A DNA stretch of 40,586 nt from the NCBI RefSeq assembly GCF_055900595.2, contig NZ_JBVWEU010000005.1, one strand, 5' to 3'. Both the position numbers and the translations under genes were made by a program. Positions within the stretch are counted from its first letter, which is position 1; each line of letters starts with the position of its first letter. Shown here in pieces: positions 5,567 to 37,039 of the stretch. The DNA comes from a plasmid. The notes beneath the pieces were generated by a model. It searched no databases and was not told where the DNA came from. It was given only the letters and a program-made list of their open reading frames with translations.

Positions 5567-6100
5567 TTACCAGGTCATTACAGGTAATATCGTAGAAATA
5601 ATCTGTGACTTTGTGACCGCGCCGAAATATCTCCCGTCAAATGAAGATGCGCTGCGGTCAGTCATCAGCAACAGTTCTGATTTACCCAACGTGTACACTT
5701 CACGAATGGCGGGCAGTTTACGCCCGCCCGGATCAACACTTAACGGCTTGCTGTAAGGCAATAACTGTCCGTTGACGTAAACACCATCATCACGAAAAGC
5801 AACTTCATCACCTTTAGCCGCTAAAATCCGCTTCATCATCTCGCCATACCCCCCTGGACAAAAGCCGCTGCCGATGTAACCACGCTTCTGTGCCAGTGAG
5901 AAAATAGCCTTTTCAGGCGGGCAGAAAATTACATAGTCGCCCTTCTCTGGCGCTTTCTGGCTGATTTTGTACAAGCCAACAGGGATACTTTTCGTGGTAT
6001 TGATGCGTAACCCGGCGGCATATCCAAAGCCACACACAACTGCACCAATCAATGAAGCCGAAATAACACCAATGGCGGCATAGCGGGTCATTTTTTTCAT
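5567..6100 (-). CDS. traF: TraF pilin-maturation peptidase (signal peptidase-like)
   Basis: 177 aa, N-terminal TM segment, 4-bp overlap with traG stop; position conserved downstream of traG. Confidence 0.75.
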   Translation of the reverse strand: MKKMTRYAAIGVISASLIGAVVCGFGYAAGLRINTTKSIPVGLYKISQKAPEKGDYVIFCPPEKAIFSLAQKRGYIGSGFCPGGYGEMMKRILAAKGDEVAFRDDGVYVNGQLLPYSKPLSVDPGGRKLPAIREVYTLGKSELLLMTDRSASSFDGRYFGAVTKSQIISTILPVMTW

Positions 6101-8040: not shown

Positions 8041-8212
8041 GGACTTGCTCCTTTATGTTCCAGTCATCAGCGGTGACGTCCATCACGTTTAACAGTTGTT
8101 GAACCTTGCCTGTATTCAGGCTGGCTTCGTTTGGGTTTCCTGCCAATGCACCACCATGCCCCGTATTTAGCATGGCGAGTAACAGCCCTAATTCTTCGGA
8201 ATTTTGTTTCAT
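8024..8212 (-). CDS. small Gly-rich ORF bridging the traI stop and traG start
   Basis: 62-aa ORF; its start overlaps the traI stop and its end overlaps the traG start. Could be real (translational coupling) or chance. Confidence 0.25.
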   Translation of the reverse strand: MKQNSEELGLLLAMLNTGHGGALAGNPNEASLNTGKVQQLLNVMDVTADDWNIKEQVHEKAK

Positions 8213-10842: not shown

Positions 10843-10856
10843 GATGCCCCCAGGAT

Positions 10857-10869
10857 TTTAGCAGCTAAA
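10857..10869. promoter_or_regulatory. KorB operator (OB) TTTAGCAGCTAAA between traJ and traI
   Basis: 13-bp palindrome in the 28-bp gap between the traJ stop and the traI GTG start. Confidence 0.7.
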
Positions 10870-10870
10870 A

Positions 10871-11230
10871 TCATTTGATCAGTATCCTATCCATTACTGT
10901 TCGTAGCTCGTTTTGGGTTGACTCAATTTTTGCCAAAAGAGTTTTGATTAGTGACACGGAAAAATTACGGGTTCTCTCGTCATTGGAAAGCCACAACTTC
11001 AGTAATCCGCCAAGTCGACCTAAATCACCATTTACCCGACTCAGCTCCTGAACCTGTTCAATATCGACCATGGATTCCACTTCATAACCCATTCCAACCT
11101 TACGCAGAAATGCGGCAGTGCTCAGTCCAGCGGCATCTGCGTTGCGCTTAATGATCGCTTCTTCTTCTGGCAGAACTGGCACACGAATGTGCTTGCCATG
11201 CTTACGTGTAGTTTTCACTTGTTCCGTCAT
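10871..11230 (-). CDS. traJ: TraJ oriT-recognition protein
   Basis: 119 aa, directly flanking oriT upstream of traI; SD GAGGT. Confidence 0.8.
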   Translation of the reverse strand: MTEQVKTTRKHGKHIRVPVLPEEEAIIKRNADAAGLSTAAFLRKVGMGYEVESMVDIEQVQELSRVNGDLGRLGGLLKLWLSNDERTRNFSVSLIKTLLAKIESTQNELRTVMDRILIK

Positions 11231-11464
11231 TTGACCTCACTCGCGGCGGTAGCCGCGTAGCCTCGCAGAGCAGGACTCCCCTTGAGAATCGAAGATGCGA
11301 ATAGGGGAGAGTAAAGTTTGATAACCTGTTTACAGGTTAGCTAACTTTACATGTCCTGCCCGGCTTTCGCCGGTGTTTACGCCAAGGAAAGTCTACACAA
11401 AGAAAAGTGGAATGTCGTGTTTTTTGATGTAAAACTGTGGATATAACGAAAAAACGGCGTTACT
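11231..11464. other. oriT: origin of transfer (oriT) between divergent traJ and traK
   Basis: Imperfect 17-bp inverted repeat 11313-11329 / 11332-11348, followed by TGTCCTGCCCGGC resembling the RP4 nic region ATCCTG/CCCGGC; predicted nic between 11358 and 11359. Confidence 0.75.
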
Positions 11465-11523
11465 ATGCCGCATACACCGGAAAACCAAGGTTTTCCGGGC
11501 GGTTTACAACTGTTATCCTGCTC

Positions 11524-11565
11524 AAATACACACGTAAATACACAGAAATACCTCATAAATACACA
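11524..11565. repeat. four helically phased AAATACACA-like direct repeats (spacing 10-12 bp)
   Basis: aaatacaca at 11524, 11536 and 11557, and aaatacctc at 11546; located between oriT and the likely traK start. Confidence 0.7.
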
Positions 11566-11578
11566 CGCAGGTTATCGG

Positions 11579-12013
11579 ATGGGAAAAGACTATTTAACTG
11601 ACCTACAGGAGTGGGTTAAGCAGAAAAAGGGGCTGAACGGCAAGAGTGCAAACAGCGGGAGGGTAGTCTTCCTGGCAATCCGGGAAGACGTCAGAAATGC
11701 GATTGAAGCCGGTTACTCTCTTACTACGATATGGGAACACATGCACGAAACTGGTCGTGTTAATACCACATACGAAACTTTTCGTCGGCATGTCCGGCGA
11801 TACATAGATGAACGAAAACGTGCAGCTGCTGTTAGCGAAAGTACACCTGCTGGAGCTACGGTAAAGAAAGAAAGCCAACAAACCGGTCCGTCACCGAAGA
11901 AAGAAACAGTGATCCCGGAGAGAACGCCGGTCAAAAGAGAGCCGCCTACGAATACCGGCAGTCAGCTGCCATCTTTCAATTTTAATCCTGGAAAAAAGAA
12001 GGGGACTAACTAA
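11579..12013 (+). CDS. traK: TraK-like basic oriT-binding protein
   Basis: Track ORF 11465..12013; start moved to the internal ATG at 11579 because the upstream part overlaps the phased repeats. Position between oriT and traL as in RP4. Start is uncertain. Confidence 0.6.
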   Translation: MGKDYLTDLQEWVKQKKGLNGKSANSGRVVFLAIREDVRNAIEAGYSLTTIWEHMHETGRVNTTYETFRRHVRRYIDERKRAAAVSESTPAGATVKKESQQTGPSPKKETVIPERTPVKREPPTNTGSQLPSFNFNPGKKKGTN

Positions 12014-12798
12014 TGCCTACTGCAGATAAAAATAAAAAACAGAGTGAAGCTGAATCAGTGCCGGTACGCCATGCTGTTCACAGCGCCCAGCAAGGAAAAG
12101 GTGGTTGTGGTAAATCCGTTAGCACCGCTTTGGTGGCAATGTACAAGATTAGCAAAGGTGAGCTACCGCTGTGCATCGATACCGATCCGCTCAATCCTAC
12201 ATTCTCTAATTATGAAAAACTGAACGTCCGACAGCTGAACATCATGGAAGGTGATGAAATTAATCAGCGCAAACTGGATACCCTCATCCAGTGGATTGAT
12301 GAAGCCGGTGATAGGGACGTTATTATCGATAACGGCGCTCCGTCATTTATTCCGTTATCAAGTTATATGATTAGCCAGCAAATCCCCGCCCTGCTTTATG
12401 AAATGGGTAAACAGCTTGTCATTCATATCTCGATTGTGGGGGGGCAGGCACATGATTACACCGTCGAGGGGTTCAAGGCCATGGTGGAGCAGTATCCGTC
12501 AGAAACCCGTTTTGTTGTCTGGCTTAACCCGTATTGGGGCGCGGTGGAATCCGATCAGGGAGTGCCATTCGAAGAATCAGAAGCGTACCTGATGAATAAA
12601 GACAAGGTTGATGCGCTTATCCGTTTGCCTACACTCAAAAAGGAGTTACACGGCCAGGACTTTGCCGACATGCTGGAAAACTACAAGACCTTCGATGAGG
12701 CCATTGAAGATAAATCATTATCTATTATGGTTCGCCAGCGTCTGAAACAGGTTCGCGCCCTTATTTTCGAACAGCTTGATTTAGCAACGGTGATCTGA
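12013..12798 (+). CDS. traL: TraL P-loop ATPase (MinD/ParA-like)
   Basis: 261 aa, Walker A QQGKGGCGKS; start overlaps the traK stop. Confidence 0.8.
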   Translation: MPTADKNKKQSEAESVPVRHAVHSAQQGKGGCGKSVSTALVAMYKISKGELPLCIDTDPLNPTFSNYEKLNVRQLNIMEGDEINQRKLDTLIQWIDEAGDRDVIIDNGAPSFIPLSSYMISQQIPALLYEMGKQLVIHISIVGGQAHDYTVEGFKAMVEQYPSETRFVVWLNPYWGAVESDQGVPFEESEAYLMNKDKVDALIRLPTLKKELHGQDFADMLENYKTFDEAIEDKSLSIMVRQRLKQVRALIFEQLDLATVI

Positions 12799-13238
12799 TG
12801 GATGATAAGACGGAAGAACTCATTGCGCTCATTGCTAAAAAGCATGGTATAGCCCTGGATGAAACCGATCCGATTATGGTCGTTCCTACCCTGCTTCGTT
12901 ATTTGCTGGATGAAAGCCAGGAGAAACAGGGTGAAATTCTGGATGAGTTTAAATCCGAGCTACAAAGCGCCCTGATGCAATGGGATTACAGCGCGAAGGA
13001 TAAGGCTGACCGTATCCTTAACGCCGCGCTAAAGGCGAATACGGAAGTAATGGAGCGGGTTTTGACATCTGCCGCCACAGAAACCGCTGTCATAATCAGA
13101 AAGGAAGTTCAGGACGAGATCAGAAAATCGCGGGCGCACATAGAAGGGGCAAGAAAACTTGCCATGATGAATATGGCGGCGGCGGTGATCACCTTAATGG
13201 CTGCTGCCGTCGCATTCATTGCAACGTTTTACAAGTGA
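12798..13238 (+). CDS. traM: TraM-like protein
   Basis: 146 aa, overlapping start/stop with traL, hydrophobic C-terminus; position as in RP4. Confidence 0.7.
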   Translation: MDDKTEELIALIAKKHGIALDETDPIMVVPTLLRYLLDESQEKQGEILDEFKSELQSALMQWDYSAKDKADRILNAALKANTEVMERVLTSAATETAVIIRKEVQDEIRKSRAHIEGARKLAMMNMAAAVITLMAAAVAFIATFYK

Positions 13239-13240
13239 CT

Positions 13241-13253
13241 ATTAGCCGCTAAG
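13241..13253. promoter_or_regulatory. degenerate KorB-operator-like palindrome (ATTAGCCGCTAAG) next to a perfect one
   Basis: 11 of 13 matches to TTTAGCSGCTAAA, 1 bp from the site at 13255. Confidence 0.4.
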
Positions 13254-13254
13254 T

Positions 13255-13267
13255 TTTAGCGGCTAAA
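13255..13267. promoter_or_regulatory. KorB operator (OB) TTTAGCGGCTAAA
   Basis: Perfect 13-bp palindrome matching the RK2 OB consensus TTTAGC(C/G)GCTAAA. Confidence 0.8.
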
Positions 13268-13357
13268 ATTTTGTTATGTTGTAGCGTGCCTTATCGCCAA
13301 CCGGCCTGAACCCCGTTTATCGGGGTTTCGCTGTTTTTAGGGGGTAGGAATTGTTGC

Positions 13358-13385
13358 GGAAAAAAATCCCCGCATGACGGGGATT
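13358..13385 (-). terminator. rho-independent terminator downstream of the kfrA-like gene
   Basis: Hairpin ATCCCCG-CATGA-CGGGGAT preceded on the plus strand by an A-run (a T-run on the minus strand). Confidence 0.55.
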
Positions 13386-13395
13386 CTGTAGCTGA

Positions 13396-14076
13396 TCAAG
13401 TTATTGTTCTTGTAAGGCTCAGACCATTCCCTTTACTTAGTGATGGGGCCTGCTCTCTTTGTAGCTTTTCTTTCTGTTCTTTCGCCTGCTTCCGCATGAG
13501 ATTCTCATGCGCTCGCTGTGCAGCCCGCATTTCATCCCATCCTTCGGCAAGCTCTGGTTTATCATGCCGCACTTTGGCCGTCGCAAGTTCGTGTATACGC
13601 GGGCCATGTAACCCCATCCCGTCATGAATCTCTTTGACAGTTTCCAGCCGGTTCTGCAGGCGACTCAGCAATGACTGTTGTTGTTGTACCTGTGACTTCC
13701 ATTTTGCCTTCTGGCCGGGCAGAGCCAAAAACCCAGGCTGACGACTCATCATCTGCTGCAGAACCGCCTCCTGCTTGTCTATCAGCGATTCCAGCCGGTT
13801 TTCAAGGTTTTCTGCCTGCGTTTCTTTATCCGCTACTGCCGCCTCTACCGCATCCTTATATTCCTGCTCAATGTTACCGGCGTCAGTTTGCGAATCCTGC
13901 AAATGGGAAGGGTCATTGATCAACTGCTGCTGTTCGTCATGCAGTTGCTGTACCTGTTCCTGGATATTTACGGCTTCCGACTCTGCGAGAAGATCAGGTG
14001 TAATATCAGGCTGCTGACGAGGGGAGGAGGTATCCCGGACCGCGCCGGGATTTTTAAATGGGGTAGTTGGCTTCAT
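13396..14076 (-). CDS. kfrA: KfrA-like coiled-coil protein
   Basis: 226 aa, Q/E-rich, predicted long alpha-helical; position after korB as in RK2; perfect SD AGGAG. Confidence 0.55.
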   Translation of the reverse strand: MKPTTPFKNPGAVRDTSSPRQQPDITPDLLAESEAVNIQEQVQQLHDEQQQLINDPSHLQDSQTDAGNIEQEYKDAVEAAVADKETQAENLENRLESLIDKQEAVLQQMMSRQPGFLALPGQKAKWKSQVQQQQSLLSRLQNRLETVKEIHDGMGLHGPRIHELATAKVRHDKPELAEGWDEMRAAQRAHENLMRKQAKEQKEKLQREQAPSLSKGNGLSLTRTIT

Positions 14077-14097
14077 CCGGGACTCCTACGCTATTCG

Positions 14098-14451
14098 CTA
14101 TCTGGAGAACTTCCGGCCCTGCTTCTCTGTGGCTGCTGCTACCTGAGCTTTACCGGAAGTCTGGTCATACGAAATACTTTTTTCCGTACCTACCTCTGGC
14201 AGTTTATCGAAATTTTGGCGATCATGCTTGAAAATCTGCTTACCTACCTGCTGATATACTGATTGCTTATCTGCGTGTAAAATCGGCCCATTATAAGAGC
14301 TGGCTTTATCCGGCCCCTTGGACAGATAAAGCGGGTAAATGCCTGGCTTTATGCTGCCCGCTCTATCAACATTGTCATTTTTCCATTTTCCAGCTTCTTC
14401 GCTTTGCAGCACTCGCTGGCCGTTCATGACAAGAACACGCTGTTTGCTCAT
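14098..14451 (-). CDS. hypothetical protein (first gene of the kfrA-like operon)
   Basis: 117 aa, perfect SD AAGGAG; no recognisable motif. Confidence 0.5.
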   Translation of the reverse strand: MSKQRVLVMNGQRVLQSEEAGKWKNDNVDRAGSIKPGIYPLYLSKGPDKASSYNGPILHADKQSVYQQVGKQIFKHDRQNFDKLPEVGTEKSISYDQTSGKAQVAAATEKQGRKFSR

Positions 14452-14948
14452 GTCGGTGTTACTCCTTGTGTTATCATCAACCGTCTGTATTGAGATAGGG
14501 CTAACTGCTATTTTTAAGTTGAATCGGCAACTGATTACCCAACTACTCTTTAACCATCATCCAGGTATTCTCCGGCCCTATGGATAAATGCCGTTAAAAA
14601 TGCGTTTGTGGGCTTCTTTCAGGCGCTGTTTGTCGAAAGGACCAAGATAGGGCTTTCTTCCAGCTACGATAAGTTAAGAGCTATTGTGTCACGCTCAATC
14701 CCTCATCCCAGCCAGGTTGATAAGGATGTCAGTACTCTGATACAGATATTGGTGTTTTTGCCGCTCATTCCTAATGTTGTTTTGCATGTTGAGTATGGTT
14801 CTTAACTCTCCCTGCGTCACCTTACTCATAAGTAACATCACCGGTAATGATGCGTTTTTAGGAAATAGCCGCCAGGAACCATGAATTCTCTGCCCTGACG
14901 GAACTACATAGCCCTCAGGTTAAATTTTGTTTAGCTACATCTATACAT

Positions 14949-14961
14949 TTTAGCGGCTAAA
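14949..14961. promoter_or_regulatory. KorB operator (OB) TTTAGCGGCTAAA
   Basis: Perfect 13-bp palindrome. Confidence 0.8.
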
Positions 14962-14983
14962 ATTATGCAATAAATAATATTAA

Positions 14984-15010
14984 TAAAAAAAATCCCGCGA
15001 CTGCGGGATT
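14984..15010 (-). terminator. rho-independent terminator after korB
   Basis: Hairpin AATCCCGC-GACT-GCGGGATT with a T-run on the minus strand, 22 bp past the korB stop. Confidence 0.6.
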
Positions 15011-15031
15011 CTGAGCGGAAATTGATACCTT

Positions 15032-16045
15032 TTATCCTTCAATAAGGCAAATTATTTTCACGTTTTCGAGATTTAGCTCTTCTTCTACACCAGTTGAATC
15101 AAACTTAATCCAGGCAAGCCCTTCTTCACTTGGGCGCTTGGTCAGGATAAGGCGGCCCTGCTCCCCCAGGTACTCAACGATAACAATAGCCTTTTTGAAT
15201 TTATCAGGATCGGTTTCCTTTTCTGGCGTCTTACGGACCTTATCGGTCACATCGTTATCATCGTGGCCGTCCGTATCATCTTCGGCAGCTTCCGAATCGG
15301 TACGGCCATTGAAGGCGTCAATGGTGTCTGGATCACGCTTGCTGGATTCTTTTTCGTCCAGGAACTCACGGAAAACTTTCACCGCACTACGGGTAATGTC
15401 TTCACCCTCGTTCTCTTCAAGCAGTTTTTGAACTTCTTCCGGGTCTTGCTTGTAAGCCGTTACCAGCTCATTAACTACGGTAACATCACGGATTGAACCT
15501 TTATTAAAAGCATCTGCTATACAATCCGGCAGGTCCAGCAACGCTGCGTGTTGGGTTACGAACGCTGGCGACTTGCCAAGCCGTTTAGCAATCTGAGATT
15601 TTGATACCCCCTCAGCCAGTTTGCGGCCAATGTGTACGGCAATTTCACGCGCCGTCAGGTCATTACGCTGGATGTTCTCAATGACCTGATCATCGTCGCT
15701 ATAGTCATTATCGATAAAAGCGGGAATTTGTTTCTTCCCGGCCACTTTACTGGCTCGCCAGCGACGTTCTCCATGGTTAATAATATAGCGCCCCGCTTGC
15801 TCCGGGTTCTCGCGAACGGAGACAGGCATTTTCACACCACGCGCTTTAATGGTATCAGCCAGCTCCTTAATGGATTCCTCTGAGAACCCTGGGTTGTCCT
15901 GCTTACGCGGTTGTTCAGGATCGGGATCAATCGCATCAACGTCCAGCATCAGTGGTTTACCCTCAGCACCTGCAGACGCATCAAGAAAGTCGGAGAGATC
16001 ACCAACGGTATCAAGGCCAAGGCCGGAAGAATTTTTTTTAGTCAT
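15032..16045 (-). CDS. korB: KorB (ParB-family partitioning protein and global repressor)
   Basis: 337 aa, ParB-like, acidic linker, follows incC with start/stop overlap; its cognate operators are scattered across the window. Confidence 0.85.
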   Translation of the reverse strand: MTKKNSSGLGLDTVGDLSDFLDASAGAEGKPLMLDVDAIDPDPEQPRKQDNPGFSEESIKELADTIKARGVKMPVSVRENPEQAGRYIINHGERRWRASKVAGKKQIPAFIDNDYSDDDQVIENIQRNDLTAREIAVHIGRKLAEGVSKSQIAKRLGKSPAFVTQHAALLDLPDCIADAFNKGSIRDVTVVNELVTAYKQDPEEVQKLLEENEGEDITRSAVKVFREFLDEKESSKRDPDTIDAFNGRTDSEAAEDDTDGHDDNDVTDKVRKTPEKETDPDKFKKAIVIVEYLGEQGRLILTKRPSEEGLAWIKFDSTGVEEELNLENVKIICLIEG

Positions 16046-16809
16046 TATGCAATCTCCATCTTAGTAAAAACATGATAGGCCAGTGCTCTCATTTCCTGGC
16101 TGGCTTTACGTGCTGCTGTCTTCTTGATTTTCCAGACAGGGACATGTGAAGCCAGTGCATCAGCAATGCTGCTTCGCAACCCGACAGACACAGGAACCAT
16201 TAACGTAGGGTAGGCCGTCTGCAGCTCCTGCAGGTGGTTTACATGGCGAGGATTGCGACCATCTACCTTACTTGGAACCATACCAATAAATTCCAGCTTG
16301 CTGTTCATTTTGCGTTTCACCTGGGTGAAGGTGGTCAGCATTTTTTTAATACCCTGAATTGAGTACACCTCAAGCTCAATAGGGCATACCACAAAATCAG
16401 CGCTCGCCAGCGCAACTATAAGCGCATTGTTAACCGTAGGCGCAGTATCAATCAGGCAGACGTCAAAGCCACTGTCCGCCAGCTGCTGCAGGTTATGGCG
16501 GAACTGCTTCACCATTTCCGGCAGATTTAATTTTTCTACGTTTGCCAGTTGAATATCTGACTCAATGAGAGAAATTCCGCTCTCAGGCATTTGAGTAAAG
16601 CGAGTTGGCTCGATCTCGCCCCACATTTCATTCGCTTTAATGCCGGACGAGAACTGTTTCAGGGTAAAAGAGGCGTTGCCCTGGGTATCCATATCGATTA
16701 CAGCAACCCGCTTGCCTCGTTCTGAAAAATCAAATGCCAGATGAACCAGGGTGGAAGTCTTGCCAACACCACCTTTTTGATTTGCTGTAACCAATACTTT
16801 CATAGCCAT
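16045..16809 (-). CDS. incC: IncC (ParA-family partitioning ATPase)
   Basis: 254 aa, deviant Walker A KGGVGKTS typical of ParA/MinD. Confidence 0.85.
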   Translation of the reverse strand: MAMKVLVTANQKGGVGKTSTLVHLAFDFSERGKRVAVIDMDTQGNASFTLKQFSSGIKANEMWGEIEPTRFTQMPESGISLIESDIQLANVEKLNLPEMVKQFRHNLQQLADSGFDVCLIDTAPTVNNALIVALASADFVVCPIELEVYSIQGIKKMLTTFTQVKRKMNSKLEFIGMVPSKVDGRNPRHVNHLQELQTAYPTLMVPVSVGLRSSIADALASHVPVWKIKKTAARKASQEMRALAYHVFTKMEIA

Positions 16810-16811
16810 CG

Positions 16812-17156
16812 CTATTCTTCCTGTTTACGTTTTGCCTCGTCAGCCCACTTTTTAACAATGAAAGCCTGCCGCTCCGGTAACACTACTTCAATACGCACAA
16901 AACCGTCAGGTACTTCTTGTTTATAGGCATCCCACACTCTGTTAACTGCCTGAGAAACAGCCCCGCGAGAAATATCCAGCGTTTCAACAAAATATTTCTG
17001 CGGTCTTCCTTCAACCAGTACGCCGTAAGCGATATCAAGCGTTTGCTTACCAACATTCAGGCTTCGGGTAACTCTTGCAAATACCTCATTAGTCAGGCGT
17101 TTTTTTTCATTGCCCGTTTTGGCAACATGCGGATCATTATTATTAACAGTCGTCAT
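16812..17156 (-). CDS. korA: KorA-like repressor
   Basis: Track ORF starts at 17213, which would place the start inside the KorA operator; the internal ATG at 17154-17156 has an SD and gives ~114 aa. C-terminus carries the PDGFVRIEVVLPERQAFIVKKW motif also seen in TrbA and KlcB. Confidence 0.7.
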   Translation of the reverse strand: MTTVNNNDPHVAKTGNEKKRLTNEVFARVTRSLNVGKQTLDIAYGVLVEGRPQKYFVETLDISRGAVSQAVNRVWDAYKQEVPDGFVRIEVVLPERQAFIVKKWADEAKRKQEE

Positions 17157-17214
17157 AAATTTACTTCCCGGTTCAACGCCTTTAACTAGACGCCTTAATG
17201 ACACCGCAAACAAA

Positions 17215-17226
17215 GTTTAGCTAAAC
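17215..17226. promoter_or_regulatory. KorA operator (OA) GTTTAGCTAAAC
   Basis: Perfect 12-bp palindrome identical to the RK2 class I KorA operator, upstream of korA. Confidence 0.8.
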
Positions 17227-17246
17227 CACGTGTGCAGGTCAATAAT

Positions 17247-17259
17247 TTTAGCTGCTAAA
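17247..17259. promoter_or_regulatory. KorB operator (OB) TTTAGCTGCTAAA
   Basis: 13-bp palindrome with central T, 20 bp from OA; OA plus OB pairing as at RK2 korAp. Confidence 0.75.
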
Positions 17260-17313
17260 ATACACTTTTTTCGATATAAAGAAACAGAAAACTACTCACT
17301 TTTCATCTATTAT

Positions 17314-17341
17314 CAAAAAAAAACCGGCTTATAGCCGGTTT
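17314..17341 (-). terminator. rho-independent terminator after the kinase operon
   Basis: Hairpin AACCGGC-TTATA-GCCGGTT flanked by an A-run on the plus strand (T-run on minus). Confidence 0.55.
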
Positions 17342-17357
17342 ATCCTTGGACATTTAA

Positions 17358-17948
17358 CTAACGACTTAATTTCTTCTTTTTCATTCTGGCCTGCTCAATC
17401 TCTGTCCCAGCGACTTTTTTAAACCAATCAGGCAAATCATTAGAAATGAACTTTGTTTTATCTTGTTCTGTGCGGAAAAGTAATCGCCGTCTGTTATAAC
17501 TGTTATCAAATACCCATACCCGGTCAGCCACGGCCATAGCTTTAGGTAGGTTGGTTACAGAACGCTCGTATCGTCTGAAAATATCATCAACAGGCACATT
17601 ATGACCACCAAGGCTTACACGCTGGTTAACGCGAGCTACTGACATTCCTACATCTTTCACCCCCACATAGATTAAATTAATTTTGTAACCTGCAGTTGCA
17701 GCAAGCTGCATTAACTTAATCTCCCCCATTCCTGTGAGTGTCGTTTCTACAGCGAAAGTACATCTATTTTTGATATTTTCCGTGCGCAGAAAAAGTGCCT
17801 GCTCTCCTGCCTTTCGATTGCTTATACCTTGTTCCCGCGCAATATCATCAGGGTTAACAACCTCTATTTTCCCAAGGATATGTCGCTTAACTAGGGTAGA
17901 TTTTCCTGCACCATTAGGCCCAGCAATAACCCAGAGTTGAGGACGCAT
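17358..17948 (-). CDS. zeta-toxin-like P-loop kinase
   Basis: 196 aa; Walker A AGPNGAGKST at residues 9-18, then IEVVNPDDIA resembling the zeta-toxin hhhDNDxF segment; ATGA start/stop overlap with the upstream ORF. Confidence 0.55.
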   Translation of the reverse strand: MRPQLWVIAGPNGAGKSTLVKRHILGKIEVVNPDDIAREQGISNRKAGEQALFLRTENIKNRCTFAVETTLTGMGEIKLMQLAATAGYKINLIYVGVKDVGMSVARVNQRVSLGGHNVPVDDIFRRYERSVTNLPKAMAVADRVWVFDNSYNRRRLLFRTEQDKTKFISNDLPDWFKKVAGTEIEQARMKKKKLSR

Positions 17949-18199
17949 CAGAGCTTAACCTCAACTACTTTTTCTGTACCAGTCATGAAACTCACCAGTT
18001 CCTTACGGCCATCTGGATATTCTTTTATAACACACCCTTCTGGTGTATTTCGTTCAGCGTAATAAATAGGTACGCCACTAAGAAGATTGGCACGGGCTTC
18101 TTCACCTGCATCATATCCAAGTTGTCTATCAAAAACGGTAAAAAATCGTGCTTCATCAGAAGGTGTCATTTCGGCCAGATGAGATAGATCCATACTCAT
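17948..18199 (-). CDS. small protein translationally coupled to the kinase (candidate antitoxin/partner)
   Basis: 83 aa, acidic; its stop overlaps the kinase start. Confidence 0.45.
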   Translation of the reverse strand: MSMDLSHLAEMTPSDEARFFTVFDRQLGYDAGEEARANLLSGVPIYYAERNTPEGCVIKEYPDGRKELVSFMTGTEKVVEVKL

Positions 18200-18274
18200 A
18201 TTAAACCCTCTATAATTTACAATTAGAAATTAACTGACATTATATAATCAGAAATGCCAACGCATTCATTCTAT

Positions 18275-18598
18275 CTATGACACTTTGGGTTTCCATGTTG
18301 CCATAATGTAAGTGAGAGTAGCCAGTACAAGGAAACTGGTCACGAACGGCCAGGCTGCAGCAAATGGGCCATCACTCCATTTAAACAGCATTTTAAAAAA
18401 CTGGATGACAACGTTCGCGATCAGCAGGAAGCGAACAGGAATCCAGAGAATAACCAGCACCATGTATACCGCACCAATGACACCATACAGGATATTACGT
18501 ACTGTGTTTTCTGATGCTGGACCAGCGACATCCTCGACCGCCCGAATTTGCTGCGGTTTACTTCCCTCTTGACGAGGAAATTTAACGACATTGGTCAT
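18275..18598 (-). CDS. small inner-membrane protein (two TM helices), first gene of the operon
   Basis: 107 aa, hydrophobic core; perfect SD AGGAGG; operators immediately upstream. Confidence 0.6.
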   Translation of the reverse strand: MTNVVKFPRQEGSKPQQIRAVEDVAGPASENTVRNILYGVIGAVYMVLVILWIPVRFLLIANVVIQFFKMLFKWSDGPFAAAWPFVTSFLVLATLTYIMATWKPKVS

Positions 18599-18648
18599 AC
18601 CGGCCTCCTGCTTTATTCAAGTGGTTTACCAAACCTTTACGCATATTA

Positions 18649-18665
18649 TAGGACATATTGTCCTA
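18649..18665. promoter_or_regulatory. putative KorC-type operator TAGGACA-TAT-TGTCCTA
   Basis: Perfect 17-bp palindrome; same architecture as RK2 OC (TAGGGCATAATGCCCTA) with different half-site bases. Confidence 0.55.
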
Positions 18666-18675
18666 TAATTGCAAT

Positions 18676-18688
18676 TTTAGCAGCTAAA
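18676..18688. promoter_or_regulatory. KorB operator (OB) TTTAGCAGCTAAA
   Basis: 13-bp palindrome with central A. Confidence 0.75.
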
Positions 18689-18695
18689 ATCTGTT

Positions 18696-18956
18696 TCACA
18701 CCTTCCAGATTTTACCCAATCCTGCATATTCAACCAGAATAGCCCAGGCCGAAAAAGGAATGGGTGTATCCCCCCCAACCCAGCGCCTGACGGTTCGGCT
18801 GTCTTTCAGACCGGTCAGTGTGGCTGCTTTGCTTCCTGTTAGCTCTGCTATCTGCATCAAAGTACGAATTTCTTCTGGCGTAGGACAATCCCATCCCGCA
18901 CCAAAGGGTAAAAAACATTCTGACCTGATTAAGACAGGGTAGGGTTTAGTTTGCAT
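18696..18956 (-). CDS. korC: KorC-like small HTH repressor
   Basis: 86 aa, starts immediately after the klcB stop (klcA-klcB-korC order as in RK2 kilC); HTH-like segment LTGSKAATLTGLKDSRTVRRW. Confidence 0.5.
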   Translation of the reverse strand: MQTKPYPVLIRSECFLPFGAGWDCPTPEEIRTLMQIAELTGSKAATLTGLKDSRTVRRWVGGDTPIPFSAWAILVEYAGLGKIWKV

Positions 18957-20075
18957 TCACGATTCACCTGTTTTGTTGTCTTCCAGTAATTTCAGTTGAT
19001 CAATATTGTAAAAAGTACGAACGCAAGTAGGGTCAAAATCCACTACCTGAGTTCCGCGACGGTTGATTCGATAACGTATAGGCTTATCTTCATGCGCCTC
19101 CACACATCCTGAATCGTATATCGTAACGATTTTTACAATAGTGCCAATATTTTTAGCAAACACCGGATGATGCACACTCACGATTTCACATCGAGCACCA
19201 ACGTAAAATTCTTTATAACGCTGAACAGTAATCATCCGCTCTTTGTATTCTTTGGAACGCTCCTTTGCCAGTTGCTTGCGCCGTTCGCTTTCGGCCCGCA
19301 TAGTTTCTCTTTCAGCCTCCCGCTCTCTCTGCATAATAGCTGTAATGCGTTCCTGAGCTGCTACAGCCCATTTACGGGCGATAAATGCTTTAGAGGCGGG
19401 TAATAACGCCTCGACCCTAACAAAGCCGTCAGGGAGCGTTAGAGGCGTTCTATCAGGGGGGGGCGAAAGGGATTTTAACCAATCAGGCAAAGGCTCAGAT
19501 GCCAGCCTGTCACGGAAATCAGCAGAGATAAAAGCAGGTTTCTTTCTGGCGTCAATCAGGCTTTGAAATACGCGGGATACGTGTGCATCAACGGTTTCTC
19601 CAGGTCTGACTTCTGAAAGCCTAACAAAATGCGAACGATACCCTGTTTCGGATACAAAGGGTGCGCCTAAATCAACGGCATGAAACGAGGTGGAAAGATA
19701 CCCCATCATACATCCGGCTTCGACCTTAACCCTTGCTCGCATACCACTGAAACTTTCGATGATAAAATCACCGTGCTGACCCCACATAGGAACGCTACCG
19801 TCATCAGCACGGCAATATTCACTGATAACATGAGCCGCTTCATGTTCACCGGCATTACACCCAAAGAAGGTTTTACCGTTCATTTTCCAGATACAGGCTT
19901 CAAACCGGTACACAGCATCATGACGCTGTTGCAGATCACCGGTCATACAGGCTTTATTCAAATCAATTAGCGCTGAGTACGCCGCGTCCAGAATGCGATG
20001 GTCGTCCGGCAGCTGCTGCGCAATGGCTTCCATTTGCTGATCGCGAGAGTCATCGCCAGGATAATGTTTGGACAT
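18957..20075 (-). CDS. klcB: KlcB-like protein
   Basis: 372 aa; contains LPDGFVRVEALLPASKAFIARKW, the KorA/TrbA-type C-terminal motif; position after klcA. Confidence 0.6.
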   Translation of the reverse strand: MSKHYPGDDSRDQQMEAIAQQLPDDHRILDAAYSALIDLNKACMTGDLQQRHDAVYRFEACIWKMNGKTFFGCNAGEHEAAHVISEYCRADDGSVPMWGQHGDFIIESFSGMRARVKVEAGCMMGYLSTSFHAVDLGAPFVSETGYRSHFVRLSEVRPGETVDAHVSRVFQSLIDARKKPAFISADFRDRLASEPLPDWLKSLSPPPDRTPLTLPDGFVRVEALLPASKAFIARKWAVAAQERITAIMQREREAERETMRAESERRKQLAKERSKEYKERMITVQRYKEFYVGARCEIVSVHHPVFAKNIGTIVKIVTIYDSGCVEAHEDKPIRYRINRRGTQVVDFDPTCVRTFYNIDQLKLLEDNKTGES

Positions 20076-20122
20076 ATTAAACCCCTGAAAAATCCCCTGC
20101 AGAGCAGGGGATAAAGACTCAC

Positions 20123-20590
20123 TTAATCGATGGCCGCACGGAACTGCTCATATTCTTGATGCCCGCTGGCGTAATCAAACAGCTGATGATAATAAGCACT
20201 GCATCTTTCTGAAAATGGCAGATTAGAATTAGCAAGCTGGGCCAGCACAAAACTGGTTGCCACCATACCTGCAGCTTCTGCGCTTAACAAACCGTCAAAG
20301 TAATTACCCTGGACAGAAATACGGTAATGTTCACGGCTGTTTGGTGCCATAAAATAACCACCATTTGAAAGTTCATAAAAATCCCACTCACCACCATCGT
20401 AATGGGCTTCAATTTTATCCAGCGCACTACTTAAATATTGGCTTTTATTTTCAGGACTTAATTTACGCATCCACTTATAAGTGTGGTTTTCCACCAAACG
20501 CCAGTATTGGCCGAAGAATTTCGGCATAAACATCAGGCGTTCTTCATAATCTGTAAGTTTACGAGCAGTAACGATAACTTCATTATTCAT
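20123..20590 (-). CDS. klcA: KlcA/ArdB-family antirestriction protein
   Basis: 155 aa; position and size match KlcA downstream of oriV; putative OC in its promoter. Confidence 0.6.
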   Translation of the reverse strand: MNNEVIVTARKLTDYEERLMFMPKFFGQYWRLVENHTYKWMRKLSPENKSQYLSSALDKIEAHYDGGEWDFYELSNGGYFMAPNSREHYRISVQGNYFDGLLSAEAAGMVATSFVLAQLANSNLPFSERCSAYYHQLFDYASGHQEYEQFRAAID

Positions 20591-20643
20591 CGGAGTTCTC
20601 CGGTAATTGACCTGAGTGACTTACCCGGCCTTCACAAACATTA

Positions 20644-20660
20644 TAGGACATTTTGTCCTA
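20644..20660. promoter_or_regulatory. putative KorC-type operator TAGGACA-TTT-TGTCCTA
   Basis: Perfect 17-bp palindrome about 55 bp upstream of the klcA start. Confidence 0.55.
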
Positions 20661-20679
20661 TAATGTGAAGTGTTTTATT

Positions 20680-20886
20680 TTATTTCCCGACAAATTCTGG
20701 ATACAGCAACCACCCAATAACAATGATACATGCAATATCAAAAAATAGAGAACAGTATAAATAAATACCTTCTGCTTTAATAAATTTTGTGAAGTGTGAA
20801 TTAAACAAATCAGCACTTATATTCTCTTTGAGATCTTTATTCATTTTCTTGGCGTCAATCATCGCGTCAATTGACTTTATTAGCAA
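20680..20886 (-). CDS. small AT-rich hydrophobic ORF (possible membrane peptide)
   Basis: 68 aa, hydrophobic C-terminus, low GC; no convincing SD checked. Confidence 0.25.
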   Translation of the reverse strand: MLIKSIDAMIDAKKMNKDLKENISADLFNSHFTKFIKAEGIYLYCSLFFDIACIIVIGWLLYPEFVGK

Positions 20887-21366
20887 TCAAAATGGAACAT
20901 GGAGCCACCAATTTAGAACATTCGAAAAATGATCCAATTTCGCATAACGATTCTAAGACGATCCCTTTAAAGCCCTTCTTTCTGGCGTAAACCCTCCGGT
21001 TCTGTAGCGCATCAGTATTTTGAAGTGTGCTTGGTATCTCTAGCGAGTATCTATGCCCGGCAAAGGTACTTTGCCGAGAGCGAAGCGGCCTATGCTCGCG
21101 TAGCGAGTGAGTCATCTTTGGGGTGAAGACCGCTTGCGGTCGAGGGGCTTGCCCCTGGGGGGATGGGAGGCCGCTTGCGGCCGGGAGGGATTGAGAAGGG
21201 GGGTTTCCCCCCTTCGGGGGCGTCGTTAGACGCGGTTAAAAATAAGGTTAATTTTTTTGGTTAAAAGTGGTTAAAGGATCGGTTAAAAGATCGGTTAAAG
21301 ATCTGGTTAGAGGGGTGTGCAAAACTCAATTAAAGCCATGATTATTAAGGGGAAAAATATCCACAT

Positions 21367-21495
21367 GCGCCCCTCATATGTCATAAAGTAGCCCCTCAAG
21401 TGTCGTAATTCCGCCCCTCAAATATCATGATAGCGCCCTTCATATGTCATAATAGCGCCCCTCAAGTGTCACCTTTCCGCCCCTTAAATGTCGTA
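21367..21495. repeat. six 17-bp iterons at exact 22-bp spacing
   Basis: Copies of GCGCCCCTCAAGTGTCA-like sequence (reverse complement TGACACTTGAGGGGC, the RK2 iteron consensus) with CCCCTCA cores at 21370, 21392, 21414, 21436, 21458 and 21480. Confidence 0.85.
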
Positions 21496-21625
21496 TCTTT
21501 ACCGGGATATTAACAGACTTATCCACAAATTAAGGGGATAATTCTAACGTCTGGTTAAGCTCTATACGCCTAAACAAAATTTCGTGCGGGCTAAACTCGT
21601 CCTAAACAAAGAAGGGCGCAATAAA

Positions 21626-21673
21626 GCGCCCCTCAACTGTCATAAAAAAAATATGTGCCCCTCAAGTGTCACC
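21626..21673. repeat. two further iterons, the second overlapping the trfA stop codon
   Basis: gcgcccctcaactgtca (core 21629-21635) and gtgcccctcaagtgtca (core 21658-21664); the trfA stop (plus-strand tca at 21662-21664) sits inside the second core. Confidence 0.75.
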
Positions 21674-22540
21674 ATTCCTCGCTGCGGCATCGTTAGTTCG
21701 TTTGCAATGAATACGATCTTTATCTATCCAAGCACTATGAATTAACCCACTATCTTTAAGCTCAGCACATGCTTTATTAACCTGCTCTCGCCACTTTTTC
21801 AGGCGGTCGGATTCCGAGCCACACATCATCTTGAATGTATCTAATTTCATAGGATATGGCTCCCGGTGAGAACCAAAGTAATCAAAGAGGCGGCGAGCTG
21901 TAGGTGAAAGTTTACGGTATTTCTCCCACACAAACTTTGAATAGTGCTCACCTGCAAAAAGCAAAACCATCTCTTTATCAATGATGACTTCACATCTTGA
22001 CGACCGTTTCCCACGGTCAAGAACGCGAAAGCGACCAATCAATGAAACAGATTCCAGTTGACCGACACGCTCAGAAATAAATTGCATGGCTGTTGCCTGT
22101 AGGCGTGTTAGGCACTCCTCGGCCTTTTCTATATAACGACCATTATAAGACCAGCCTAGATCCTGGCAAAGTTCGTAAAACGTGAAGGTAATAGGTTCAC
22201 CCATTGGTTTCCTTTTGGCGTATTCAAGAACCTGCTGCCACACAAGTTCATCGTCATCAGCACGTAACTCAAGCCCGGTATAGGTGATCCGCACATCTTT
22301 ATTAATGTGGAAAATCTCTTTCTTCTGCAGTGCTTCACGGGGCTGACGTTTATTCTTGACAGTAAACAGAGCAGAACGAGCATAATCGTTAGGTAATGCC
22401 CGCATCGAATCCGGCCATGGTGCAATGTCAAATAGCGTCAGTTGCTTCTCTGTCTGCCCTTCATTCGCCATTCTGGAGCGCTGATCAAGCGCTGCCTTTT
22501 TTAGCTTTTCAAGTTCAGAATTATTATTGTCATTCTTCAT
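21662..22540 (-). CDS. trfA: TrfA replication initiator
   Basis: 292 aa; segment LSPTARRLFDYFGSHREPYP matches TrfA as I recall it; iterons immediately downstream. Confidence 0.85.
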   Translation of the reverse strand: MKNDNNNSELEKLKKAALDQRSRMANEGQTEKQLTLFDIAPWPDSMRALPNDYARSALFTVKNKRQPREALQKKEIFHINKDVRITYTGLELRADDDELVWQQVLEYAKRKPMGEPITFTFYELCQDLGWSYNGRYIEKAEECLTRLQATAMQFISERVGQLESVSLIGRFRVLDRGKRSSRCEVIIDKEMVLLFAGEHYSKFVWEKYRKLSPTARRLFDYFGSHREPYPMKLDTFKMMCGSESDRLKKWREQVNKACAELKDSGLIHSAWIDKDRIHCKRTNDAAARNGDT

Positions 22541-22614
22541 AAGTGCCTCACCGCTTTGAAGCGCATTGAGAAAAGGCCCTCATCGGGCCTTCCATTCTAT
22601 ACCATCTTGCCCCA

Positions 22615-22989
22615 TCAATCAGTTTTCTTACCTGCAACTGCGGAACTGCTTGCCGGGGATTTTATATTTAAATACTGAATATTCTCTGCAATGTAATCGA
22701 TGCCATACACTTTTTGGCCGTTTGATTCATACTGGGTGTTACGCATAGAACCTTCTACAAAGACCTGCGAGCCTTTTCCTAGGAACTTTGCAGCGTTTTC
22801 TGCAGCCTTACCCCATACCTTGATGCGGAAAAAGTCGGTATATTCCTTAACTTCACCGGTTTCCTGATCTTTATAGCTCCCGTTAACCGCTATATCGAAA
22901 ATTGCGATTGGTGTGCTTTTTGCTGTATACCGTAACTCTGTGTCTTTTGTTAGATTTCCGATAAACTGAAAACGATTAAGATTTTTCAT
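22615..22989 (-). CDS. ssb: single-stranded DNA-binding protein
   Basis: 124 aa OB-fold SSB-like sequence (FQFIGNLTKDTELRY...), upstream of trfA as in RK2. Confidence 0.8.
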   Translation of the reverse strand: MKNLNRFQFIGNLTKDTELRYTAKSTPIAIFDIAVNGSYKDQETGEVKEYTDFFRIKVWGKAAENAAKFLGKGSQVFVEGSMRNTQYESNGQKVYGIDYIAENIQYLNIKSPASSSAVAGKKTD

Positions 22990-23024
22990 ATGCAGTCTCG
23001 ATTTCTGTGACTAAGGAATACAGA

Positions 23025-23036
23025 GTTTAGCTAAAC
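23025..23036. promoter_or_regulatory. KorA operator (OA) GTTTAGCTAAAC
   Basis: Perfect 12-bp palindrome between divergent ssb-trfA and trbA. Confidence 0.8.
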
Positions 23037-23055
23037 AATTTAATTCGGTCAATAT

Positions 23056-23068
23056 TTTAGCCGCTAAA
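23056..23068. promoter_or_regulatory. KorB operator (OB) TTTAGCCGCTAAA
   Basis: Perfect 13-bp palindrome 20 bp from OA. Confidence 0.8.
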
Positions 23069-23147
23069 ATTTACATCGAGGCGTAAGCGTATCGTGTACA
23101 ACCTAATTTTTTTTACTAACATCCTCAGACTTCTTGAAGAAAGAGAC

Positions 23148-23498
23148 ATGACAAAGCAGGAACTATCCCAAAAAGCTGGGGTTTCAATCTCTTTTTTGTC
23201 GGACCTAACAAATGGAAAAGCGAACCCATCTTTAAGGGTGATGGAATCCATTGCTAATGCCCTCGATGTAGCCCTTCCCGTTCTCCTTGAAACAACTGAC
23301 CTTGATGAACACAGTCTTATGCTTATGGCTGATGGAAAACCTGTAAAAAGTCTCCCTCCCGGATATGTAAGAGTGTCCGTAATTCTTTCTGAACAGCAAG
23401 CCTTTCGGGTACGAATGTGGAGTGAACATACACGTCAGAAGTTAGAGCAAGAAGCCAAAGCAATGCTGGAGATCATGCAAGAAAAGAAAAACAGTTAA
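23148..23498 (+). CDS. trbA: TrbA-like repressor (XRE HTH plus KorA-type C-terminal domain)
   Basis: Track ORF starts at 23094; the ATG at 23148 (MTKQELSQKAGVSISFLSDL...) starts the HTH. C-terminal motif PPGYVRVSVILSEQQAFRVRMW. Confidence 0.7.
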   Translation: MTKQELSQKAGVSISFLSDLTNGKANPSLRVMESIANALDVALPVLLETTDLDEHSLMLMADGKPVKSLPPGYVRVSVILSEQQAFRVRMWSEHTRQKLEQEAKAMLEIMQEKKNS

Positions 23499-23532
23499 CG
23501 CCAAAAAGGAATGGGACTGCAGGGATGCAGAT

Positions 23533-23545
23533 TTTAGCCGCTAAA
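23533..23545. promoter_or_regulatory. KorB operator (OB) TTTAGCCGCTAAA in the trbB promoter region
   Basis: Perfect 13-bp palindrome between trbA and trbB. Confidence 0.8.
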
Positions 23546-23680
23546 AAACATCCCCTTTCCCGTCTTCGAACTACCAATAATTTCACTTTAATGTTTGCTT
23601 AACTATTGCCTGAAAACTTGTTTCGTTATATCGTTTGTCGTAATTCCCATTATAAACGCAGTAAAAATAAAGGATGAATT

Positions 23681-24637
23681 ATGGACACTGTAGATTCCGT
23701 CGATTTAAGAGCGATAGAAAAGCTCAAAAGGGACATGGGACGAAGCCTAATGGAAGCGTTAGAAGATCCTGAAACACTAGAAATAATGCTGAATCCAGAT
23801 GGTAAGTTATGGCGTGAAAAATTCGGTCAACCCATGTTCTGCATGGGAACTGTGCCTGTACAACGTTCAAAAACCATTATTCAAACTATCGCGGGCTTTC
23901 ACAAAAAGATTATCGATTCCAACTCGCCATTTCTTGAATGTGAACTCCCTATTGACGGTTCCCGTTTTGCTGGTCAACTGCCGCCACTGGTTGCAGGTCC
24001 AACCTTTGCTATTCGTAAGAAAGCCTCACGTATTTTCCTTCTGGATGAATATGTAGATAAAGGCGTAATGACCAGGGTGCAGGCTGATTTTATTTGTCGC
24101 GCAATTGCCGCTCATAAAAATATTTTAGTTATTGGTGGTACTGGTTCAGGGAAAACAACGCTGTTAAACGCCATCATTGCTGAAATAGTTCGTCAGTTTC
24201 CAGACGAGCGCATCTGCATTATCGAAGATACGGGCGAACTGCAGTGCGCCGCGCTGAATTTTGTTCAATATCACACCACCATTAATGTCACTATGACTGA
24301 CATTCTTCGTCTGATCCTGCGTATGCGACCTGACCGTATTTTCGTAGGCGAGACTCGCGGTCCAGAAGCTCTCGATATGCTTGACGCCTGGAACACCGGT
24401 CATGAGGGCGGCGCGGCCTCACTTCACGCCAATAACACACTTTCTGCTCTCACGCGTCTGCGTTCTTTAATCTCACGTAACCCCTTTGCTCCGCGAGAAA
24501 TTGAGCCAGTAATTGGCGAAGCGGTCAACGTGATCGTTCAGATATCTAAAACTTCTGAGGGTCGCCGGATTAAAGAAATTCGCGAGATTCAGGGTTATGA
24601 AAACGGGGAATATATTTCCCAACTCATTGCGGCTTAA
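23681..24637 (+). CDS. trbB: TrbB (VirB11-family secretion ATPase)
   Basis: 318 aa, Walker A GGTGSGKTT; SD AAGGA. Confidence 0.9.
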   Translation: MDTVDSVDLRAIEKLKRDMGRSLMEALEDPETLEIMLNPDGKLWREKFGQPMFCMGTVPVQRSKTIIQTIAGFHKKIIDSNSPFLECELPIDGSRFAGQLPPLVAGPTFAIRKKASRIFLLDEYVDKGVMTRVQADFICRAIAAHKNILVIGGTGSGKTTLLNAIIAEIVRQFPDERICIIEDTGELQCAALNFVQYHTTINVTMTDILRLILRMRPDRIFVGETRGPEALDMLDAWNTGHEGGAASLHANNTLSALTRLRSLISRNPFAPREIEPVIGEAVNVIVQISKTSEGRRIKEIREIQGYENGEYISQLIAA

Positions 24638-34309: not shown

Positions 34310-35083
34310 ATGCCGTATTTAGATATTCCACCGGCTCAGGTTGAACGTGTAGTTTGCTCAATTACTGCAGCGATAAAATATCAGGTTCCGGCTAACATCA
34401 TGTTAGCCATAGCTGAAAAAGAGGGTGGTCGTCCCGGACTTGAGAATAAAAACCGTAACTCAAACGGCACATATGATATAGGCCGTATGCAGTTTAATAC
34501 GGTTTATTTAAAGGATCTGGAAAAATACGGCATTACAGAAGAAGATGTAGCACAGCCAGGCTGTTATTCGTATGATTTGGCTGCGTGGCGTATACGCGGC
34601 CATATCAAAAATGATAAGGGAGATATCTGGACAAAAGCAGCAAATTATCATTCAAAAACGCCTCAATTTAACAAGGTATATCGTGCTGACCTGATCAGAA
34701 AAGCAGCTAAATGGCAGACCTGGATTGAAGCTCGCTTTAATACATTTGACACAACGAAACCTGCAGGAACGACTACTCCACTGCCTCAACAGGCGACGGT
34801 TGGAGTTACGCCAGAAGAAAGAGCAGGGAAAAACATTACACTGGTTACTAACCTTGCACAAAGCGACACACTCGCTACAGAACCGCCCAAAAATGACGGA
34901 ACAACAGTAACACCGACTACACCGAATCAACTTATTGGTTTTTCCGCTTCTGTAAAACAAATACCGGTTGAAAGCGTCGTAAAAGCTGACTATCAGCAGC
35001 CCACACAGCAACTACCGGGTCGTTATAACAAGGCTGCAGCTGATGCACTGGCTGCAGTATATGGAAATATCAAACTACGTTGA
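34310..35083 (+). CDS. trbN: lytic transglycosylase (TrbN/VirB1-like)
   Basis: 257 aa; transglycosylase-like segment AIAEKEGG...YDIGRMQFN; last gene of the trb block. Confidence 0.7.
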   Translation: MPYLDIPPAQVERVVCSITAAIKYQVPANIMLAIAEKEGGRPGLENKNRNSNGTYDIGRMQFNTVYLKDLEKYGITEEDVAQPGCYSYDLAAWRIRGHIKNDKGDIWTKAANYHSKTPQFNKVYRADLIRKAAKWQTWIEARFNTFDTTKPAGTTTPLPQQATVGVTPEERAGKNITLVTNLAQSDTLATEPPKNDGTTVTPTTPNQLIGFSASVKQIPVESVVKADYQQPTQQLPGRYNKAAADALAAVYGNIKLR

Positions 35084-35616: not shown

Positions 35617-35647
35617 TTAATCTCTACCTTATATTATTTAAATTTAA

Positions 35648-37025: not shown

Positions 37026-37039
37026 AGATTCTCTTACTT

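Follow-up and report, generated by a model that had tools for sequence, protein, structure and literature searches.

When three genes of one plasmid encode the same short protein segment, do all three products use it to hold the same partner? The question is raised by contig NZ_JBVWEU010000005.1 (assembly GCF_055900595.2), the 40,586 bp of which (45% G+C), referred to here as the window, make up essentially an entire conjugative plasmid with an IncP-1-type backbone. The repressors KorA and TrbA and the protein KlcB of this plasmid share a segment that the original prediction took to contact KorB in all three cases. We find it likely that the three segments are paralogous KorA-type dimerization and KorB-docking modules working as set out below. 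The earlier reading is right for KorA and TrbA; for KlcB, it is unproven and partly mislabeled.

The three peptides first noticed all occur verbatim in the encoded proteins: VPDGFVRIEVVLPERQAFIVKKW in KorA (16845-16913, minus strand; residues 82-104 of 114), LPDGFVRVEALLPASKAFIARKW in KlcB (19368-19436, minus strand; residues 214-236 of 372), and LPPGYVRVSVILSEQQAFRVRMW in TrbA (23352-23420, plus strand; residues 87-109 of 134). They belong to a module of ~30 residues, a beta strand plus an amphipathic helix, that is common to the three proteins. The consensus proposed for it, PxGFVRV...LP...AF..KW, fits except in TrbA, which has LS for LP and MW for KW. Its description as C-terminal holds for KorA and TrbA but not for KlcB, in which the copy is internal and followed by 136 residues.

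Alignment of the segments, the check that had been suggested for them, strongly supports homology. In pairwise BLASTP comparisons with composition-corrected E-values, KorA and KlcB are identical at 16 of 30 positions (E 9e-10), KorA and TrbA at 14 of 35 (E 1e-9), and KlcB matches TrbA with E 1e-5; no significant segment besides the module was found among the three proteins by this method. When family alignments were compared with hhalign, the three pairs scored probabilities of 98.2%, 97.5%, and 98.3%, with 33-38 columns aligned in the comparisons involving KlcB and 57 in that of KorA with TrbA; KlcB residues 212-244 matched the KorA profile at 98.2%. A hidden Markov model (HMM) built solely on the modules of eleven other IncP-1 plasmids matched the window, translated in all six frames, at exactly three places (E 4.8e-19, 7.7e-16, and 2.6e-11). 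As its next match had an E of 0.5, the window contains no fourth copy. The critical position of the module is occupied by phenylalanine in all three proteins (KorA F99, TrbA F104, and KlcB F231), and it is aromatic in 23/24 KorA, 32/32 TrbA, and 44/45 KlcB cluster representatives.

Why this position is critical is understood from RK2/RP4, in which descriptions of the module date back to the 1990s and the way it works was established in 2025-26. The domain shared by KorA, TrbA, and KlcB is credited to papers of 1992-94 (Bingle et al., PMC2680271), and the structure of KorA on DNA was solved by König et al. The module is the KorA dimer interface (PMC2665229, PMC11790492), the dimer being built of beta1 strands and alpha5 helices (PMC11790492). 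KorB is a sliding clamp that depends on cytidine triphosphate (CTP); alpha5 of KorA docks on KorB helix alpha10, at F249, and KorA Y84 and KorB F249 each stack on the backbone of the other, by which the clamp is locked at the promoter (structure 8QA9; McLean et al., PMC11790492). Y84 is required only for cooperativity with KorB and not for repression by KorA alone, as the Y84A mutant revealed, and phenylalanine is as good as tyrosine at this position (PMC2680271). F104 of RK2 TrbA uses the same KorB interface, and the aromatic residues are kept in 321 of 328 plasmids (98%) that have KorA, TrbA, and KorB (bioRxiv 10.64898/2026.05.27.728120). The statement that the shared domain mediates KorA-KorB cooperativity in RK2 is thus borne out (PMC2680271, PMC11790492). 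Since the module is textbook IncP-1 regulation with a solved mechanism, the feature of the window is already known.

How closely do the proteins of the window follow this scheme? By sequence, its KorA, TrbA, and KorB are clearly orthologues of the RK2 proteins. KorA (16812-17156, minus strand; 114 amino acids) is a helix-turn-helix (HTH) repressor that matches Pfam PF16509 KORA with 90.9 bits (cut-off 26.7), and its C-terminal residues 82-111 form the module. [quoted passage not shown] In the alignment with the RK2 structure, 'qafivkkw' lies opposite 'qayivrkw', such that F99 (codon TTC, 16860-16862, minus strand) is aligned to Y84; phenylalanine, as noted above, is functional there in RK2. 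The window protein is ~54% identical to RK2-type KorA and differs from it in a 16-residue N-terminal extension. An alternative TTG start at 17213 overlaps the KorA operator, and the annotated ATG at 17156 is therefore the likely start.

KorB (15032-16045, minus strand; 337 amino acids) is a ParB-type CTP clamp with Pfam ParB_N, KorB, and KorB_C domains. It matches the KorB structures 8qa8/8qa9 with E 1.2e-91, with its helix-alpha10 segment 'REFLDEK' aligned, and E227-F228 within this segment (codons 15362-15367, minus strand) correspond to E248-F249 of RK2. Like RK2/RP4 KorB, it also keeps the ParB CTP motif, here GERRWR (GxRRxR type).

TrbA (23094-23498, plus strand; 134 amino acids, GTG start) is an HTH_3 repressor, the module of which spans residues 87-118. 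It matches the NCBIfam equivalog NF010465 with 188.6 bits (cut-off 96) over profile positions 1-120 of 121, and is 61-66% identical to IncP-1 TrbA proteins from residue 1. Within its Pfam HTH_3 match, 'GVSISFLSDLT.GKANPSL' is conserved with RK2-type TrbA, and GVSISFLSDLTNGKANPSL in this N-terminal domain is identical in the RK2-type proteins. F104 (codon 23403-23405, plus strand) bears the same residue number as its RK2 counterpart and is invariant in an alignment of the window, RK2-type, and epsilon TrbA proteins. Relative to RK2 TrbA, the module shows greater divergence (LS, AFRVRMW), and relative to RK2-type proteins, a 13-residue C-terminal extension is present.

The operators that these proteins would read are also in place. 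The window contains 12 KorB operators (OB; TTTAGCSGCTAAA), the same number as RK2/RP4 and far above the 0.04 expected by chance, and two perfect KorA operators (OA; GTTTAGCTAAAC), compared with 0.13 expected. One OA (17215-17226) lies over the -10 box of the korA promoter, and an OB (17247-17259) lies by its -35 box, 32.5 bp away from center to center, giving the order OB, TTGACC, 17 bp, TAAACT, in which OA spans the -10 box. The second OA (23025-23036) covers the -10 box of the trfA (ssb-trfA) promoter, which faces trbA, with an OB at 23056-23068, 31.5 bp from it, in the divergent trfA/trbA promoter region. This arrangement at the korA and trfA promoters is that of RK2/RP4, where OA lies over the -10 box and OB sits beside the -35 box ~32 bp away (32/33 bp at the RK2 korA promoter; PMC2680271, PMC2665229). 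At the trbB promoter, a TrbA operator (OT)-like element, TTTCGTTATATCGTTTG (23621-23637), lies over the putative -10 box, and an OB (23533-23545) lies upstream of the promoter, ~70 bp from the putative -35 box. The element occurs once in the window and aligns with TTTCGGTATATCGT in the trbA-trbB spacers of PB5 (IncP-1 alpha) and pHH3414 (epsilon). A predicted OT over the -10 box with an OB upstream at a distance matches the TrbA system of RK2, although the spacer between OB and promoter is ~80 bp shorter in the window than in PB5.

At the klcA and kleE promoters, we found no OA when up to two mismatches were allowed, and at the klcA promoter no OB when one mismatch was allowed. With two perfect OA and twelve OB, the KorA regulon therefore appears to be reduced to the korA and trfA promoters in this clade.

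Two further observations concern operators. A 19-bp palindrome, ATAGGACAnnnTGTCCTAT, is present in four copies (18648-18666, 20643-20661, 37706-37724, and 37732-37750; 0.02 expected) and lies between the -35 and -10 boxes of the klcA and kleE promoters; the copy at 20643-20661 is that of the klcA-klcB-korC promoter, and the two near 37.7 kb lie ahead of genes with a hypothetical annotation. The palindrome is probably the KorC operator of this clade. Just past the korB terminator, at 14929-14961, another OB falls between putative -35 and -10 boxes, with a degenerate OA, ATGTAGCTAAAC (10/12), 20.5 bp from it. A 580-bp stretch without an annotated gene lies ahead of kfrB, and the OB/degenerate OA region may be a remnant of a kfr promoter.

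How might the parts work together? In KorA and TrbA, the module is the C-terminal domain; two strands and two helices would pair to build the repressor dimer, and these dimers would read OA or OT over the -10 boxes of their target promoters. The exposed helix aromatic (KorA F99, TrbA F104) would stack against E227-F228 in alpha10 of KorB. KorB would load at one of the 12 OB sites, close as a CTP-dependent clamp and slide, until KorA or TrbA captured it and locked it at the promoter, resulting in strongly cooperative repression of the korA, trfA, and trbB promoters. The original prediction had each of the three proteins contacting KorB bound at neighboring operators. For KorA and TrbA, in which residues and operators are kept, the contact stands; for KlcB, it is unproven. 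Adjacency does not stand, since a KorB clamp that slides in from OB need not sit on a neighboring operator. In the case of KlcB, the module most likely would give a dimer presenting the same aromatic surface. Off DNA, KlcB could compete for or titrate KorB, or mix subunits with KorA or TrbA, and thereby modulate the circuit, a role that we put forward as a hypothesis. Each binding step in this scheme is carried over to the window from experiments on RK2.

KlcB (18957-20075, minus strand; 372 amino acids, module residues 214-243) is encoded between klcA (Antirestrict) and a korC-like gene, and is 43% identical to R751 KlcB (E 2e-75). Its AlphaFold model (predicted local distance difference test, pLDDT, 86.7) has an N-terminal alpha/beta domain (residues 1-200), the module, a long helix to ~285, and an SH3/KOW-like C-terminal beta barrel (295-363). 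It had been counted among the regulators that act at operators, a view that the protein does not bear out: Pfam and NCBIfam revealed no DNA-binding domain, and there is no helix-turn-helix in the AlphaFold model. Without such a domain, KlcB cannot contact KorB from a neighboring operator. KlcB had no match to Pfam, the copy used containing no KlcB model; the precomputed Pfam matches tied to the protein are PF27190 and PF27393. Operon position, an N-terminal domain in which the motifs WGQ.G and ETGYRS are invariant, the internal module, and the C-terminal barrel are all as in other IncP-1 KlcB proteins. The window protein is ~40% identical to those of the alpha and beta subgroups and lacks the Cys-rich stretch of ~90 residues that extends the alpha and delta forms at the N terminus, and the klcA-klcB promoter has the KorC-type palindrome only.

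Does the KlcB module have the features of a docking surface? In the monomer model, its strand is unpaired coil and its helix begins at residue 227. When two KlcB modules were joined by a flexible linker, each was predicted to form a strand (218-226) and a helix with pLDDT 85-90, which is the outcome expected of a KorA-like beta-ribbon dimer. Across 47 homologues, the P, G, V, L, A, R, and W of the module are nearly invariant, and the position of F231 (codon 19383-19385, minus strand), which corresponds to KorA F99, is F or Y in 45. Since this aromatic is not needed for repression by KorA alone, which does need an intact dimer, its retention in KlcB suggests that a KorB-facing surface is under selection. 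A KlcB-KorB contact has been proposed (PMC2665229); we found no experiment demonstrating it in the literature searched.

A wider search placed KlcB in context. A 35-column module profile, searched against 1.84 billion representative proteins, gave 232 clusters at E ≤ 1e-3, the best 150 of which were classified by domain HMMs. These 150 comprised 34 TrbA-type, 26 KorA-type, and 45 KlcB-type clusters, 22 with the module only and 6 with module plus barrel (all 22 and five of the 6 look like gene fragments), a few single oddities such as a tandem-HTH KorA, and 13 clusters of a fourth architecture, which derive from metagenomic and genomic sequences. In this fourth family, one or two modules follow an N-terminal domain of ~135 residues that is unrelated and has a predicted helical structure. 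Some members also have a barrel like that at the C terminus of KlcB, or an N-terminal extension rich in Cys. In the three contexts that we read, all outside the window (L021, 1938-3560; L022, 9001-9597; L019, 624-1175), the gene comes immediately after klcA, in the klcB slot. L021 and L022, the contigs of sufficient length, carry an IncP-1-type backbone with KORA, ParA, and KorB genes further along; in another fourth-family contig, an Antirestrict gene is instead downstream of the module gene. KorB in the fourth-family backbones keeps REF, and the KorB-contacting aromatic is kept in 17 of 17 fourth-family modules.

We also noted that IncW plasmid R388 encodes a KlcB homologue (L016, 1492-2145; 217 amino acids) that consists of the N-terminal domain alone, without the module. 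The KorA-like protein of the same plasmid (L016, 116-439) has E at the aromatic position, and the 3.6-kb stretch of R388 that was read contains no KorB gene. R388 serves as a natural negative control.

Together, the klcB-slot and R388 contexts suggest that the module goes with backbones that carry KorB and with the klcB slot, and not with one particular N-terminal domain. It is conceivable that the module is a portable KorB-docking adaptor and that the slot downstream of klcA always encodes a carrier of it that is free of DNA; we offer this tentatively, judging it rather more likely to be wrong than right. If true, klcB-slot proteins would constitute a third, operator-independent class of partner for the KorB clamp and could serve as decoys or anti-co-repressors, or could bring another activity to KorB. 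[quoted passage not shown]

Could the resemblance among the three segments have arisen in some other way? Short helical segments of similar composition may resemble one another by chance, and this one, itself short at 23-35 residues, contains much K, R, and A toward its end. Given composition-corrected E-values of 1e-5 to 9e-10, hhalign probabilities of 97.5-98.3%, and the 10 orders of magnitude that separate the third and fourth HMM matches in the six-frame translation, we regard such an origin as extraordinarily improbable. A recent duplication or gene conversion within the plasmid, leaving likeness without shared function, would account for the G(F/Y)VR(V/I) that the three window copies have in common, since other clades have GFERV in KorA, GYERV or GYERI in TrbA, and GFVLV or GFAWV in KlcB. 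However, the three copies are only 52-57% identical as DNA and use the same codon at only 3-5 of 11-14 shared residues, which argues that their likeness has been kept by selection at the level of protein. Moreover, KorA and KlcB modules are no more alike within plasmids (13-20/30 identical) than between them (12-21/30), and every IncP-1 subgroup that was sampled has all three module proteins. We consider this scenario very improbable as well, and concerted evolution of the modules within a plasmid was rejected because within-plasmid identity was no higher and DNA identity was 52-57%.

A more serious alternative grants homology and concerns KlcB: its module may only dimerize or heterodimerize, pairing with KorA or TrbA and relieving repression with no contact to KorB. 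The mixed dimers would carry a single DNA-binding domain. Overproduction of KlcB reportedly released KorA repression through the shared domain, in the work of Bhattacharyya and Figurski from 2001. Joined in tandem, KlcB modules are predicted to pair strand to strand, and the strand residues of KorA and KlcB are nearly identical (PDGFVRIEVVLP and PDGFVRVEALLP). In addition, the module is the KorA dimer interface (PMC2665229, PMC11790492), with a role in dimerization stated by Bingle et al. (PMC2680271), who cite Bhattacharyya and Figurski (2001) for it. What speaks against KlcB acting by subunit exchange and nothing more is the aromatic residue, which in KorA is dispensable for repression by KorA alone and needed for KorB only (PMC2680271), yet is retained by 45 of 47 KlcB homologues and by every one of the 17 modules in the alternative klcB-slot proteins. 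We therefore think exclusive heterodimerization unlikely, if worth keeping in mind. Heterodimerization and KorB docking by KlcB are compatible, and both could hold.

Several points weigh against the view that all three segments are KorB-docking modules. Docking in the window is inferred from RK2; what the window itself shows is homologous sequences, conserved residues, the layout of the operators, and a predicted fold. The OT was assigned by alignment to other plasmids and not by footprint. With two OA only, the KorA-KorB partnership reaches a smaller set of promoters than it does in RK2. Of the three copies of the module, that of TrbA has diverged the most (LS for LP, AFRVRMW for AFIVKKW), and RK2 TrbA binds KorB approximately ten times more weakly than KorA does, making the affinity of the window protein uncertain. 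A Foldseek search of the PDB with the tandem KlcB-module model gave no match better than E 8, which is uninformative because single chains offer no counterpart to a two-chain dimer module of ~35 residues, and the likeness of KlcB to KorA therefore derives from sequence homology and secondary structure. Finally, nothing separates KorB docking by KlcB from dimerization or from heterodimerization with KorA.

What does the locus add to the RK2 picture? A narrow-host-range, low-G+C plasmid of IncP-1 clade II keeps the full aromatic interface of KorB, KorA, and TrbA, which fits the 2026 survey, in which this interface is kept in 98% of plasmids with all three proteins. The conservation of the KlcB aromatic, together with the persistence of the module after a swap of the N-terminal domain, puts the focus on a KlcB-KorB contact.

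The window is a near-complete 40.6-kb IncP-1 'clade II' plasmid. Positions 14000-24000 are 99.6% identical to NZ_CP142409.1, a Klebsiella pneumoniae plasmid of 40.6 kb, and ~40-kb plasmids of E. coli and Salmonella are also close relatives of this region. Gene mapping from NZ_CP142409.1 revealed a complete IncP-1-type backbone that comprises tra, trb, trfA-ssb, oriV iterons, klcA-klcB-korC, kleE, korA-incC-korB, and kfrB-kfrC; kfrA is absent from the window, and no homologues of klaA, kleA-D, or kleF are annotated or mapped in the region. Outside the NZ_CP142409.1-like group, the nearest named relative is pDS1, with a KlcB that is 64% identical. Both pDS1 and pMCR_1511 have been assigned to the narrow-host-range IncP/P-1 'clade II', in which klcB is among the conserved genes (Hayakawa et al., PMC9499019). 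The clade is restricted to Enterobacteriaceae, and mcr-1 or CMY-2 is listed for relatives within it.

Within the central control region, between kleE and korA, lies a zeta-toxin family gene (17358-18199, minus strand), and the small gene upstream of it probably encodes its antitoxin. RK2-type plasmids have kle and kla genes in place of this pair. The oriV iterons (21365-21670) comprise six copies with 22-bp spacing, with two more by the trfA end; upstream of the iterons are further repeats, A/T-rich and GC-rich. Outside the region studied, the window and NZ_CP142409.1 differ by indels, the window being offset by ~+530 bp in one interval and by ~-520 bp in another within its positions of about 5000-15000 and 35000-40000, and in the sequences of traI, which is only 95% identical, and of a recombinase, which is only 93% identical.

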